Origin: Eledone cirrhosa
Taxonomy: Eukaryota
Assembly: GCA_964016885.1 (NCBI GenBank)
Contig: OZ024743.1
Location: 10,478,001-10,542,000, forward strand
DNA length: 64,000 bases
Reading direction: 5' to 3'
Under the pieces are notes generated by a model, which did not search any database, was not told the DNA's origin, and worked only from the letters and a program-made list of their open reading frames with translations. Made by a program: the position numbers and the translations under genes. Each line of letters starts with the position of its first letter. Position 1 is the stretch's first letter. Shown here one piece after another: positions 1,810 through 51,168 of the stretch.

Positions 1810-2109
1810 TTAGTGATGTAATCCTGGTATGTATATAAGCATTTCTAACATTAATTTTTACCTAATTATGTATGGTTGACCGTATATTTAATTAATTTCC
1901 ACGTGCTGTTGAAATGTTGGATAAATATTCTATAGCGGTTGCACGCGAAGATGCCGCAATGGCGTATTTATTTACTGTTTCTTCATAGATGCCTTTTATT
2001 CTTATAGCCTGGTCTAATTGATTTTTTGTGTGGTTAATTATGCTGATTGGGAGTAGAGATGATGTATATATATTATCAAATAATTCTCTGGACATATATA
2101 GTATATATA

Positions 2110-3451
2110 TCATCATCATCATCATCATCATCAACGTTTAATGTCCGTGTTCCACGCTTGCATGGGTTTGGATGGGGGTTTTCCCACTTGAGGCAAGAGT
2201 GATTGTCTTGCTCGCATCGGACTGTCTGGCAGGTTTTCTACAGTTGGATGCCCTTCCTAACACCAACCACATTTACAGTGTGGGTCTGGGAGGTTTTTAC
2301 CGTGTTGCCTACACGGCCACATTACAGCGTGGACTGTGTGTTTTTTTGTCGTGACACTTACACGATCTCATTTGTTTCGGCCTGGATGGTGTGGCACCAA
2401 CATAACTTTACATAGAAGGGGGCGGTGTGGATGGGGTGGGGGTGGTGGGACGGGGGTGTATTTTGTTAGAGATGCCTACTGACTGTAGTAGGTTTTACTA
2501 TGTATTTAGGTAAGGCGGGTCTTCTCTATTACTGAGTACCGCCAAAGGTCTCGGTCCAGTGACATTGTCTTGAAGTGCGTGAGGTCGGAGTTTATCAGCT
2601 CGTCCCAGGTTTTTCTAGGTCTGCCTATTCCGTGGCTACCGTCTATCTTTATTGCCCTGCACTTTGTTATACAGCTATCGACTTTCATGCGCATCACGTG
2701 TCCATACCAACGTAGCCTTCTCTCGAGTAAACAACATCTGATCCCTCTTATTTCTAATTTTTTCCTTAGTTCGTTTATGCTTTGCCGTTCACGTATATTA
2801 CTATTACACATCCAGCGGAGCATGCAAGCTTCATTCCTCTCTAGTCTGCATATATCCTCTGCACACAATGCCCAGGTCTCACTGCCATGCAACATTGCTG
2901 TTTGTATGCAGGCATCATACAACCTGCCTTTCATTTTTAGGGAGAACCCTTTAGCGGCTAATAGTGGTATAAGCTCTCTGAACTTTTTCCATCCAGTTCT
3001 GACTCTAGCTACTGTACTTTCAGAACACCCTACCCCACTGCTGATTTTGTCACCCAGGTAACGGAAGCTGTCCACTATTTCTATAGAGCCCTCTGCGCTG
3101 TTGAAAGAGCTAGTATTTTGTGAGCACTTGCTGCTACTTATTGCACCAGAGCACCGGCCACATGTAAAATCTATGTTCTTAGTTAGCTTACCTGTGATCC
3201 CACTACATCTTTTATGCACCCATACTTTGCATTTCTGACACAAAATGGAGTTTCTACCTATGCCTTTCCTACACACTGAGCATGGCCACTTCCCGGAAGG
3301 GACCGCCGCCTTATTTCCTTTCTTACAAACTAGAACTTTGGTCTTAGCCAGGTTAATTTTAAGGCCTTTTGATTTTAGGCCGTGCTTCCATGTTTGGAAT
3401 TTCTTCTCTAGCTCGGCCATTGATTCAGCTATGAGTGTTAGGTCGTCTGCG
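2110..3451 (-). mobile_element. RTE family A, 5'-truncated copy (from YADD through the 3' UTR and (GAT)n tail)
   Basis: ORF 2506-3420 encodes the RT C-terminus and PHD finger. The 3' UTR matches other A copies. TA-rich flanks. Confidence 0.95.
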
Positions 3452-3680
3452 TATATATATATATATGTATATATTTATATATATATATATGTATATATTT
3501 ATATATATATATATACATATATATCTATATATATATAAAAAAATATCTATATATATATACATATATATCTATATATATATACATATATATCTATATATAT
3601 ATTTATATATACACACATATATATTTATATATATATATATATATATATATATACACACATATATATATACACGTGTATAT
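3452..3680. repeat. Compound (TA)n microsatellite between two divergent RTE copies
   Basis: Directly visible in the sequence. Confidence 0.95.
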
Positions 3681-6043
3681 AAGACTATCAAGTGGCCAGG
3701 AGGGAAGCTAGGAGACAAGTGTACTTCGCAAGAAGGGAAGCAGAGGAAAGAATGTTCAAGCATGTTCTACAACGTGAGGACCAAAAACGTGAGGTGTTCA
3801 GGATTGCTAGGCAATGTGTCAAGGAAAACAGTGATATTGTCGGGGAGAAGTGTGTACTTAACGATGACGGCGTACTTGCCATCACCGACGCCGATAAGAA
3901 GGTAGCTTGGAAGTGTCACTATGAAAGGCTACTAAATGAGGAGAATAAATGGGAGAAAGACAGTCTCCCCCACATAGACCCAATAGAGGGACCAGCAGTG
4001 TTAGTCGAGGGTAGTATAATAAGTAAGGCAATCAAAGATATGAAGACAGGCAAGGCGGCTGGGCCTTTGGAAATAGTTGCCGAGATGCTGAAGGCATCTG
4101 GTACGGTGGGACACACCATGGTCACCCGGATAGTCAACCAAGTCATACAGAATGGGGTTGTTCCGAAGGACTGGCGTAGCAGCATTATCGTTAACTGTTA
4201 TAAGGGTAAAGGAGATGCCCTAGATAGGAGTAACTATAGAGGCATTAAATTAATTGACCAGGTCATGAAGGTCACGGAAAAAGTAATAGCGCAACTAATC
4301 AGAGAGCGAATTGATCTAGATGAAATGCAGTTCGGGTTTGTGTCAGGAAAAAGTACCACAGACGCTCTTTTCATTGTACGACAACTACAGGAGAAGTACC
4401 TAGCTAAAAGTAAACCCCTATACTTAGCTTTCGTCGACTTGGAGAAGGCCTTCGACAGAGTCCCCCGTTCCATTATCTGGTGGGCTCTTAGAAAACTAGG
4501 TGTTGATGAATGGCTTGTGAGAGCTATACAAGCCATGTATAAAGAAACAGTCAGCAAGGTTAGAATTAACAACGAATATAGTGAAGAGTTTAGTGTAAAA
4601 GTTGGTGTTCATCAGGGCTCTGTTCTTAGCCCCCTGCTATTTATTATTGCCCTCCAGGCTATAACAGTGGAGTTCAAGACCGGCTGCCCATGGGAACTCC
4701 TATACGCAGATGATCTAACGCTCATAGCTGAATCAATGGCCGAGCTAGAGAAGAAATTCCAAACATGGAAGCACGGCCTAGAATCAAAAGGCCTTAAAAT
4801 TAACCTGGCTAAGACTAAAGTTCCAGTTTGTAAGAAAGAAAATAAGGCGGCGGTCCCCTCCGGGAAGTGGCCATGTGCAGAGTGTAGGAAAGGCGTAGGT
4901 AGAAATTCCATTTTGTGTCCCAAATGCAAAGTTTGGGTGCATAAAAGATGTAGTGGGATCACAGGTAAGCTAACTAAGAACATAGATTTTACATGTGGCC
5001 GGTGTTCTGGGGCAATAAGTAGCAGCAAGTGCCCACAAAATACTAGCTCTTTCAACTGCGCAGAGGGTTCTATAGAAATAGTGGACAGCTTCCGTTACCT
5101 GGGTGACAAAATCAGCAGTGGGGGAGGGTGCTCTGAAAGTACAGTAGCTAGAGTCAGAACTGGGTGGAAAAAGTTCAGAGAGCTTATACCACTATTAGCC
5201 GCTAAAGGGTTCTCCCTAAAAATGAAAGGCAGGCTGTACGATGCCTGCATACGAACAGCAATGTTGCATGGCAGTGAGACCTGGGCATTGTGTGCAGAGG
5301 ATATACGCAGACTAGAGAGAAACGAAGCTTGCATGCTCCGCTGGATGTGTAATAGTAATATACGTGAACAACAAAGCATAAACGAACTAAGGAAAAAATT
5401 AGAAATAAGAGGGATCAGATGTTGTTTACTAGAGAGAAGGCTACGTTGGTATGGTCACGTGATGCGCATGAAGGACGATAGCTGTATAACAAAGTGCAGG
5501 GCAATAAAGATAGACGGTAGCCACGGAATAGGCAGACCCCGAAAAACCTGGGACGAGCTGATAAACTCCGACCTCACACACTTACACCTCACCAAGACAA
5601 TGTCACTGGACCGAGACCTTTGGCGGTACTCAGTAATAGAGAAGACCCGCCTTACCTAAATACAAAGTAAAACCTACTACAGTCAGTAGGCATCTCTAAC
5701 AAAATACACCCCCGTCCCACCACCCCCACCCCATCCACACCGCCGCCTTCTATGTAAAGTTATGTTGGTGCCACACCATCCAGGCCGAAACAAATGAGAT
5801 CGTGTAGGTGTCACGACAAAAAAACACACAGTCCACGCTGTAATGTGGCCGTGTAGGCAACACGGTAAAAACCTCCCAGACCCACACTGTAAATGTGGTT
5901 GGTGTTAGGAAGGGCATCCAACTGTAGAAAACCTGCCAGACAGTCCTATGCGAGCAAGACAATCACTCTTGCCTCAAGTGGGAAAACCCCCGTCCAAACC
6001 CATGCAAGCGTGGAACACGGACGTTAAACGTTGATGATGATGA
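3681..6043 (+). mobile_element. RTE family A, 5'-truncated copy
   Basis: Uninterrupted RT ORF, ~370-nt 3' UTR, (GAT)n tail running into (TA)n. Confidence 0.95.
3692..5659 (+). CDS. RTE reverse transcriptase with inserted PHD finger (5'-truncated, no endonuclease)
   Basis: Motifs [57 protein letters not shown]. Confidence 0.85.
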
Positions 6044-49900: not shown

Positions 49901-50040
49901 GGAGACCCAAGATGACTTGGGATGAGGTGATAAAAGCCGACCTTACCCAACTACACCTCTCAAAGTCAATAACACACGACCGTGACCTCTGGCGTCACGC
50001 AGTAATACAGGGTACCCGACCTCCCATGGGTACATGCTGA
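46932..50040 (+). pseudogene. APE-RT(PHD) ORF with a single frameshift (1039 aa if repaired)
   Basis: GTINVG, VQETRW, AYAPQ, GDFNGH, QLDFIL, SQH and YADD are present. tgtaggaaaggtgtagg (26757) has collapsed to tgtagg. Confidence 0.92.
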
Positions 50041-50386
50041 AGCATATAAACAATATGCCCCCCCCCCACCGCAAGGTGGTCGTGGAGGTGCCACGGCAAA
50101 AAAGCACCCAGCCCACACTGTAAAGTGGACGTGTAGGCGCCACGAAAAAGCACCCAGCACTCACTGTAAATGAGGTTGGTGTTAGGAAGGGCATCCAGCT
50201 GTAGAAATCAAGCCAGATCAGTTCCTGTATGAGCAAGGCATGGTCAGCCGACCAGACACTGCCCACAACAGGACAACCCGTCTAACCCATGCTAGCGTGG
50301 AAGAACGGACGTAAAACGGTGATGATGATGATGATGATATATATATATATATATATATATATATATATATATATATATATATATAT

Positions 50387-51168
50387 ATATGAAAGACGTA
50401 AAATAAGAAAATTATAAAAATTAACTTACTAAAATTTCACTCCAACTAATTAGTTTCTAAAAGGGAATAAACATGGTTTCCAAATGGAAAGCATAGAGAA
50501 GCCATTTCGTCATCAGTAAGTCGTTCTCAGCTAAGATCCCAGGCGATGCGTGGACACAGGGAACTTATACAAAAATAATTCAGTGGGTGGAAAAAAGCAA
50601 GCGTGGACTAAATTCCACGACATTGAAAAAATCACTGCCTACTTCGTCGGTGGCAAATTCAAAAGAATCAATCACGTGACATCGAGGTTAATCAGTGAGG
50701 AGTGGGGTGTTAAAAAGACAGTAGCCAAGCTATTACTATGAACTATAGTAGCAGTTTTGGCAAATTTTTGTTCAACAAAATAATTTGGAGATAATTATAC
50801 TATAGTTCATAGTAATAGCTTGGCTACTGTCTTTTTAACACCCCACTCCTCACTGATTAACCTCGATGTCACGTGATTGATTCTTTTGAATTTGCCACCG
50901 ACCAAGTAGGCAGTAATTTTTTTCAATGTCGTGGAATTTAGTCCACGCTTGCTTTTTTTTCCATCCACTGAATTATTTTTGTATAAGTTCCCTGTGTCCA
51001 CGCATCGCCTGGGATCTTAGCTGAGAACAACTTCCTGATGACGAAATGGCTTCTCCATGCTTTCCATTTGGAAACCATGTTTATTCCCTTTCAGAAACTA
51101 ATTAGTTGGAGTGAAATTTTAGTAAGTAAGTTAATTTTTATAATTTTCTTATTTTACGTCTTTCATAT
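50387..51168. mobile_element. Long foldback/MITE-like element with ~365-bp arms and 47-bp spacer
   Basis: 50387-50750 is the reverse complement of 50798-51168. Mirror ORFs at 50550+ and 50807-. TA-terminated. Confidence 0.85.

Follow-up and report, generated by a model that had tools for sequence, protein, structure and literature searches.

The DNA considered here is a single window of 64,000 nucleotides (nt) from Eledone cirrhosa (GCA_964016885.1, contig OZ024743.1, 10,478,001–10,542,000), in which retrotransposons related to the RTE clade lie in and beside tracts of alternating TA. All positions below are those of the window. By self-comparison of the window and domain scans, 25 RTE-related copies were mapped, in both orientations. 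Thirteen belong to family A (diverged copies included), four to B, one to C and two to D, and three are tRNA-type short interspersed elements (SINEs); the remaining two are a 43-nt tail and an old fragment. Families A and B are ∼75% identical at the DNA level. The copies differ among themselves by 1–9%; B3 and B4 are 99.2% identical, and B2 is ∼99% identical to them. A single long open reading frame (ORF) was found, with an N-terminal APE endonuclease and a reverse transcriptase (RT) in one frame (Pfam Exo_endo_phos and RVT_1 in B3, B4 and A8). The best folds and sequence matches of the protein were to L1 ORF2p, with a mean pLDDT of 84.6 for the predicted model. No ORF1 was found: in the 5' part of A4, A8 and B4 no ATG-initiated ORF exceeds 74 aa. 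The families end in (GAT)n, not poly(A), after a similar stem-loop that is common to A, B, D and the SINE. These stem-loops fold consistently in A, B and D, yet none of them beats shuffled sequences (z –0.5 to –1.4).

An earlier note on this DNA had described four nests of copies, at 1.5–6.0, 12.0–23.3, 34.5–41.6 and 45.1–50.4 kb. All four proved to be real. The left edge of the window is occupied by a 5'-truncated family C copy (1–1530, – strand), whose 3' end lies beyond the window and whose 5' end carries a 28-nt repeat in three copies adjoining a TA tract. It is followed by a TA tract with G interruptions (1531–1595) and a 43-nt RTE 3' remnant (1594–1636, –), the (GAT)n tail of which runs into the tract. 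A compound TA tract (3452–3681) is common to the 5' ends of two 5'-truncated family A copies: A1 (2109–3451, –), where TATA of the element itself is continuous with the tract at the 5' junction, and A2 (3682–6044, +), which retains RT and a PHD finger and whose tail runs into (AT)n at 6045. In the second nest, the 5'-truncated B1 (12294–12693, +), with a TA tract at its 5' end (12168–12293), lies tail-to-tail across another TA tract with the short A-type copy A3 (12730–12878, –), which also has TA at its 5' end. A compound TA array (14002–14578) containing a 22-nt variant unit, found elsewhere only at 18983, borders the full-length but frameshift-broken A4 (14579–18961, –; APE, RT and PHD). 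The variant array continues beyond A4 (18962–19081) as the 5' flank of both A4 and the 5'-truncated A5 (19082–21327, +). A TA tract (21328–21537) lies between the tail of A5 and the 5' end of the 5'-truncated B2 (21538–22116, +). The SINE placed by the earlier note at 22165 (22164–22497, +) indeed has TA on both sides; it combines a tRNA-like head (judged by eye), an RTE-derived body and a D-type (GAT)n tail. A 300-nt compound TA tract (22498–22795) extends from its tail to that of D1 (22796–23184, –), which is likewise TA-flanked on both sides.

Outside these nests, B3 (24661–27842, +), truncated inside the endonuclease and with a 959-aa open frame (APE-RT-PHD-thumb), is flanked by TA on both sides and had been missed. 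The third nest includes the short A-type copy A6 (34522–34671, –), with a TA tract at its 5' end, and a tract of (TA)n-AC units unique to this locus (35530–35625), which forms the 5' flank of A7 (35626–36098, +; internally duplicated). The full-length A8 (36100–40478, +) comes directly after A7, and the pair lies between two 17-nt copies of the (TA)n-AC unit. In A9 (40497–41565, +) the first 6 nt, TAACTA, equal the tract variant unit (5' microhomology), and the tail runs into (AT)n. The fourth nest holds D2 (45129–45569, –) and the full-length B4 (45594–50338, +), which has one frameshift and a 5' untranslated region (UTR) of 358-nt tandem units. Both have TA on both sides, and B4 is followed by a perfect (AT)n tract (50339–50390) and a 790-nt palindrome. 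Further right lie an older SINE copy (51510–51872, –) with a TA tract at its 5' end, A10 (57898–58853, –) with weak TA at its 5' end only, and a SINE (61309–61642, +) that is 95.5% identical to the one at 22164–22497 and lacks TA at both ends; the last two also showed no duplication. It was considered whether the nests are pieces of one split copy, which was ruled out because 3' ends are kept in all scorable copies. The region at 6.3–11.9 kb is TA-poor, as the earlier note had said (0.2% of positions), and contains only an old 98-nt fragment without TA. Its emptiness alone is not significant, the chance of an empty 5.6 kb being ∼0.14 by simple arithmetic (10 sites in 31 kb).

TA at the junctions

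A 20-nt flank was scored as TA-rich when at least 11 of its 19 steps were TA or AT, with the element-free DNA of the window as background; thresholds of 10–14 gave the same picture. By this graded score, 18/24 5' junctions (p 1e-14) and 15/23 3' junctions (p 6e-11) were TA-rich, and 13/22 copies were TA-rich on both sides (p 2e-10). The corresponding background was 9.1% for one side and 6.9% for both, so that within the window the lack of enrichment which the earlier note had named as fatal to its idea was not what was observed. Under a strict test, which required a perfect run of at least 8 nt within 10 nt, the counts were 17/24 for 5' junctions, only 9/23 for 3' junctions and 7/22 for both sides. 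Because neighbouring copies share tracts, they were merged into 13 independent sites, 12 of them scorable on both sides. TA was present on either side at 8/12 sites (background 8.3%, p 9e-7) and on both sides at 6/12 (background 3.9%, p 3e-6).

Among the 16 young copies (at least 90% identical to a relative), 15 had TA on at least one side and 11 on both, in agreement with the earlier claim that nearly all young copies, in both orientations, have TA at their junctions. The copy at 30666–31196, scored as old, shares 93% over 120 nt with 34522–34671; if it is counted as young, the figure becomes 15/17. A second SINE family, whose nine copies are often bordered by (TAA)n, served as control. None of its 18 junctions was TA-rich, against 33/47 for the RTE and SINE copies (Fisher p 9e-8), indicating that the TA association is family-specific. 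These results confirmed that RTE and SINE copies adjoin TA tracts far above chance. The purity of 5' and 3' flanks did not differ significantly (median 15 vs 14.5, p 0.096, n 18). Of the TA tracts in the window, 29/52 carry no RTE junction, and those that do are longer (median 53 vs 29 nt).

Age of the tracts relative to the insertions

The earlier note had proposed that the copies entered TA tracts which were already there, and this was borne out by variant units at three sites and by TA at variably truncated 5' ends. TA adjoins 5' ends truncated at nine positions (∼1580, 2010, 2120, 3030, 3300, 4010, 4170, 4230 and 4350 in the reference copies), so the possibility that TA is an element tail was discarded. 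Only locus-unique units were used as barcodes, since a unit can be shared without being informative, as with the variant at 3467, which recurs in three nests. The flanks of A4 match over 49/50 nt of the variant array, including 8 non-alternating steps. Among 342 mismatched flank pairs, two scored 7–8 (a tract compared with itself) and the others at most 4. The 22-nt unit occurs six times in 64 kb, five times to the left of A4 and once to the right. As the usual RTE duplication is given as 7–15 nt (PMC6007223), the long match at A4 is more simply read as in-register splitting of a tandem array. The (TA)n-AC unit was found only at 35565–35622 and again, as the 17-nt copy, after A8. There is only one place, 1539–1581 within the G-interrupted tract, where both flank motifs of the A1+A2 nest are found; it matches the two flanks and seems to behave like an empty duplicate of the nest site. 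With locus-unique variant units on both sides, or a matching empty duplicate, the tracts at A4, A7+A8 and A1+A2 demonstrably pre-existed and were split, as judged from the sequence of their flanks.

Duplication boundaries are undefined inside TA tracts. At the copies without TA (S3, A10, A11 and A14), the search for duplications gave nothing adjacent over 8 nt; a copy of the control SINE family gave 19 nt in the same search.

How copies may come to lie in the tracts

To see how much preference the counts call for, nick models were built from the fraction of possible nick positions that fall in TA context in element-free DNA, and were compared with the both-sides counts. Nicking at any base was rejected (p 2e-10 for copies, 3e-6 for sites), as was nicking at TpA only (p 3e-4 and 4e-3). 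A 3-mer model was borderline (p 0.06 for copies, 0.08–0.09 for sites), and a TATA/ATAT 4-mer model fitted (p 0.57 and 0.48). A 6-mer model expects TA on either side in 90–93%, against the observed 8/12 sites and 18/22 copies. The earlier note had invoked cleavage of extruded (cruciform) tracts. Recognisable targets are interrupted every 10–20 nt and a 4-nt preference for TATA/ATAT reproduces the counts, so extrusion is not needed. Its other proposals fared better. The (GAT)n tail does merge into AT, in phase at 12 of the 15 3' ends flanked by TA (p 0.018, with a naive expectation of 50%), in line with the suggested tail-target microhomology, although later slippage could add to this phase. Landing pads do regenerate, since TA is left on both sides of each insertion and later copies sit in those flanks. 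On the whole, the interpretation put forward in that note was partly supported.

The results are consistent with a simple sequence of events. The endonuclease would nick at short alternating TATA/ATAT steps, and the terminal AU of the RNA would pair over 1–2 nt with the nicked TA strand and prime reverse transcription. One protein class may move A, B, D and the SINE, because the 3' stem-loop before the tail is common to them. Even a modest 4-nt preference would put most copies into microsatellites, because TA tracts contain the majority of the TATA/ATAT 4-mers. Each insertion would split one tract into two and probably duplicate a few units, so that the next copy would land beside the last and the nests would grow. 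We consider it probable, with some reserve, that a short alternating-TA nick preference together with tail pairing and tract splitting explains the RTE and SINE copies in TA tracts.

Relatives were sought in prokaryote assemblies, where 18 loci were obtained. Six of them (L001–L006) are PHD-bearing relatives with 45–48% identity, presumably eukaryotic contaminant DNA. Flanks were read in L001, L002, L004, L005 and L006; L003 stops before its 3' end, and L007–L018 are too distant. In L004 a (CTA)n tail adjoins a TA tract in very TA-rich DNA. As the PHD finger is present in relatives with and without TA flanks, the TA trait appears to follow host repeat content or sub-lineage and not the PHD finger as such.

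Several observations weigh against the proposed explanation. No TA tract was present at the 3' ends of L001, L002, L005 and L006 (four of the five readable), where other repeats were found. The material is one 64-kb window with 12 scorable sites. In it the young SINE at 61309–61642 lacks TA at both ends, A10 has only a weak 5' run, and three old fragments are without TA; the SINE at 61309 and A10, having neither 3' TA nor a duplication, are not predicted by a strict TATA nick. No duplication was found at the TA-flanked B1, S1, B3, A6 and S2. Barcode evidence is present at 3/13 sites, most tracts being too pure to tell, and pre-existence was read from flank sequence and a duplicate proxy in place of true empty alleles. 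The 3-mer model was not rejected at the site level. The background may include tracts lengthened after insertion, so that the 4-mer fit is a bound and may understate the true preference. In addition, three of four palindromic DNA elements are TA-bounded, implying that TA tracts attract other insertions too.

The alternative that survives best is a dedicated targeting system, in which the protein recognises long (TA)n or a cruciform, or the PHD finger steers by reading chromatin, in the manner of Dong, Kibi and Mino. The TA at 15/16 young copies, the greater length of junction-bearing tracts, the rejection of the TpA-only model and the invariance of the PHD cysteines in 69 relatives would all suit it. 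We regard it as unlikely, because the 4-mer preference suffices and the 6-mer model over-predicts, recognisable targets are interrupted, the PHD finger also occurs in relatives with ends outside TA, and one young SINE copy lies outside TA. As in sequence-specific long interspersed elements (LINEs), the target repeat is found on both sides (13/22 copies) and pre-existed at three sites; near-exclusive insertion beyond a short motif was not found, as young copies lie outside TA and a 4-mer fits. The family thus works like a loose microsatellite-targeting LINE and falls outside a strict definition of one. That a common though scarcely described RTE lineage with a PHD finger in its RT and a plant-type endonuclease is a genuine (TA)n-targeting LINE of TA-rich invertebrate genomes, without precedent in the RTE clade or for this repeat, is possible but doubtful.

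TA repeats are fragile, and host-made breaks at the tracts might have been patched by RTE or SINE cDNA, the endonuclease having no part in the choice of site. Clear duplications are missing at many junctions, and the palindromes at 50386–51169, 28443–28811 and 12879–13902 also start or end at TA tracts, as such patching would allow. However, it should have been open to the TAA-tailed SINE family as well, which avoids TA (0/18); moreover, the catalytic residues of the endonuclease are intact, and staggered nicks or clean splitting would account for the flanks of A4 and A7+A8 matching in register. We therefore think this account quite improbable. It is very improbable that the elements themselves made the TA, whether through slippage of the tail, by non-templated addition or because a tiny TA seed grew once the copy was in place. 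(GAT)n can turn into AT runs by decay, tracts have probably lengthened to some extent since insertion, and RTEs have been presented as sources or carriers of simple sequence repeats (SSRs) (PMC2887409, on lepidopteran RTE tails; PMC7878876, on shrimp). Against this, TA is no rarer at 5' junctions than at 3' junctions, the tracts differ from one sister copy to another, A4 and A7+A8 have locus-unique units to their left and right, and more than half of the tracts (29/52) have no RTE junction. Finally, although TA tracts are hard to assemble, B3 and B4 are nearly identical and the window is repeat-rich with no host gene noticed, mis-joins at TA repeats or neutral retention in repeat-dense DNA can scarcely be credited, because adjacency holds at the base-pair level between copies that differ by 1–9%, 3' ends are kept, the variant units run on from one side of an insertion to the other and the control family shows no such effect.

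An AT-rich insertion bias of RTEs is established in the literature, and TA-centred nicking with tail-dependent site choice is described in the available text of PMC6007223 and PMC13295347. Together with a reported link between RTEs and (AT)n in shrimp (PMC7878876), these accounts make the contrast with weakly specific RTEs, which the earlier note had drawn, smaller than it was stated to be. The pattern in the window appears to be known RTE behaviour, TA-nicking with tail pairing, carried to an extreme. The nearest systems are the Tn-TA signature elements (plant RTE/Au SINE and Bov-B/Sauria SINE), which have the same single APE-RT frame, microsatellite tail and TA-centred site choice (PMC6007223, PMC13295347), and for which 1–2-nt tail-target pairing was proposed, as here. 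They differ in having dispersed sites, an upstream T stretch (∼10 nt upstream of the first base of the duplication; PMC6007223) and rare tail-like flanking repeats, whereas most copies here are nested inside (TA)n. The portions of PMC6007223 and PMC13295347 available to us do not mention a PHD finger, which is present here. Microsatellite-specific LINEs such as Dong (TAA), Waldo (ACAY), Mino (AC), Kibi (TC) and Koshi (TTC) (PMC3812793) likewise insert into pre-existing simple repeats and leave the target on both sides. They belong to the R4, R1 and Tx1 clades, with none listed for TA in the text seen, and the specificity here is looser, being explained by a 4-nt preference. In Litopenaeus vannamei, another SSR-rich invertebrate genome, recent RTE-BovB copies were statistically tied to long (AT)n (PMC7878876). 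This was read, in the part available and without junction analysis, as transposable elements (TEs) carrying SSRs, whereas the junctions here point to the targeting of existing tracts. The active octopus element RTE-2_OV has a single ORF of ∼1100 aa with a zinc finger and occurs alongside Dong-R4 LINEs (PMC9115989, PMC13282606). By description it is set apart from A and B, since its microsatellite directly follows the ORF and its finger is given as C2H2, against a 300–400-nt 3' UTR and a C4HC3 PHD here; the octopus RTE text searched in these two papers contains no target-site analysis. The miniature inverted-repeat transposable element Micron and MuTAnT have the same TA-microsatellite target, but are plant DNA transposons moved by transposase (PMC3812793, PMC4486113). 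Neither a (TA)n-targeting RTE nor an RTE whose reverse transcriptase contains a PHD finger was described among the literature matches listed, a set that Repbase and subscription papers lie outside, so that a prior description of either is possible.

RTEs pass for random or weakly AT-biased integrators, even in work that develops them as gene-writing tools (PMC13708176). If our explanation is true, a short TA preference with tail pairing would be a simple safe-haven strategy that needs no dedicated targeting domain; it would explain how TE nests could renew themselves in genomes rich in repeats, and TE-SSR associations would have to be re-read as targeting in place of carriage. If the lineage did target (TA)n in the strict sense, every split tract would add to its own supply of targets, and cephalopod TE hot spots would be explained; the shrimp result would turn from carriage of (AT)n into targeting, and the PHD finger would possibly read chromatin at the tracts.

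Element anatomy, relatives and neighbouring repeats

The C4HC3 PHD finger of B3 (26748–26879, +) lies between RT motif 7 and the thumb, and complete fingers were also found in five other copies in the window and in L001–L006. Its cysteines and histidine are invariant in 69 aligned relatives, and the pattern was present in 114/121 proteins checked. The finger weakly matches the Pygopus PHD (E 0.006) and keeps the Trp before the His, which we take to be part of the methyl-lysine cage. RTEs are defined as lacking a C-terminal cysteine-histidine finger, a definition that does not include an internal PHD; the window protein P0001 has no such finger at its C terminus and has the internal PHD instead. 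A lineage-wide PHD finger inside RT may be a separate lead on how LINEs sense chromatin.

In the endonuclease, Q182-H183 of P0001 aligns with D229-H230 of L1, placing Gln at the D229 position, as in at least 90% of the 69 aligned rows. A loose QH pattern was present in 119/121 proteins and SDH in none. The corresponding sites in the window are at 25092–25210 (+), 47604 (+) and 1424 (–). The beta-hairpin loop is two residues shorter than in L1, with the aligner gap at L1 200–201. A two-residue hairpin gap (at L1 196–197) and D229Q were reported for plant RTEs only, in the part of PMC6007223 available, and both features are thus common to plant RTEs and the present elements, which means that plant-type RTE endonuclease features occur here across an animal lineage.

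Of 8000 scored candidates, 1056 match the window protein at E 1e-50 or better. In a quick tree made from 40 of 120 listed homologues, A, B and C group together in a single clade (SH-aLRT 100). By anatomy the elements appear to fit the RTE clade, the tree being one of relatives only, with no named RTE references (RTE-1, Bov-B, SR2). The 3' UTR is short in family D and ∼300–400 nt in A and B; an unusually short 3' UTR is given as an RTE-clade trait (PMC1291365).

The 3' UTRs of A and B and the SINE bodies contain 18 occurrences of a motif that in the relative L002 is placed in the 5' UTR (L002:199 and L002:4006) and is absent from the 5' UTRs of A and B. This suggests that the 3' end of the LINEs was acquired from a bipartite RTE or a SINE (compare PMC5786205). 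A3 (12730–12878) and A6 (34522–34671), of different subfamilies, both begin at the same base of this L002-type motif and are possibly complete non-autonomous elements, or mark a truncation hot spot. The tandem units of the 5' UTRs measure 358 nt in B (45607–46688) and are spaced by ∼490 nt in A8 (36104–36746). The 5' UTRs of A4 (18249–18961) and A8 differ strongly, and their coding parts are 90% identical. A 48-nt 3' UTR unit is expanded to eight copies in an old element (52059–52437), and the internal duplication of A7 is 112 nt long (35770–36005). Within A7–A8 (35626–40478), A8 follows directly on the tail of A7 and both tails end before AAC; A8 may have inserted in the (GAT)n tail of A7, or the pair may be a template-switch tandem. 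In the relative L004 (L004:2165–4631), a eukaryote-like contig of a bacterial assembly, ∼2.4 kb consisting mostly of TA tracts lies between two tail-to-tail PHD-RTE copies and holds a tRNA-like SINE and a fragment with an RTE motif.

Rfam at gathering thresholds gave no match in the window, and a hammerhead-like reading of 1700–1810 was not supported (fold z +1.1). Long imperfect palindromes (77–94%) are located at 50386–51169, 28443–28811, 12879–13902 and 28103–28358, the first three being the TA-bounded ones; they may be foldback elements or hairpin-repaired breaks. A broken LINE 3' fragment (∼41950–42500, +) ends in (AAT)n and is presumably of the restriction-like endonuclease type, Dong/R4-like. 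It is followed at 42507–43073 by three tandem SINE copies bordered by (TAA)n, and further such copies were seen at 6088, 29779, 44258, 56176, 60827 and 62769, the last with a 19-nt duplication. The (AAT)n-ending fragment and the TAA-bordered SINEs may form a parallel, TAA-targeting system. With RTE and Dong-like LINEs side by side and its arrangement of SINEs, the window appears octopus-like. An unclassified repeat (78% between copies) at 14305–14513 and 35417–35624 terminates in a TA tract, and in both places this tract contains family A copies.

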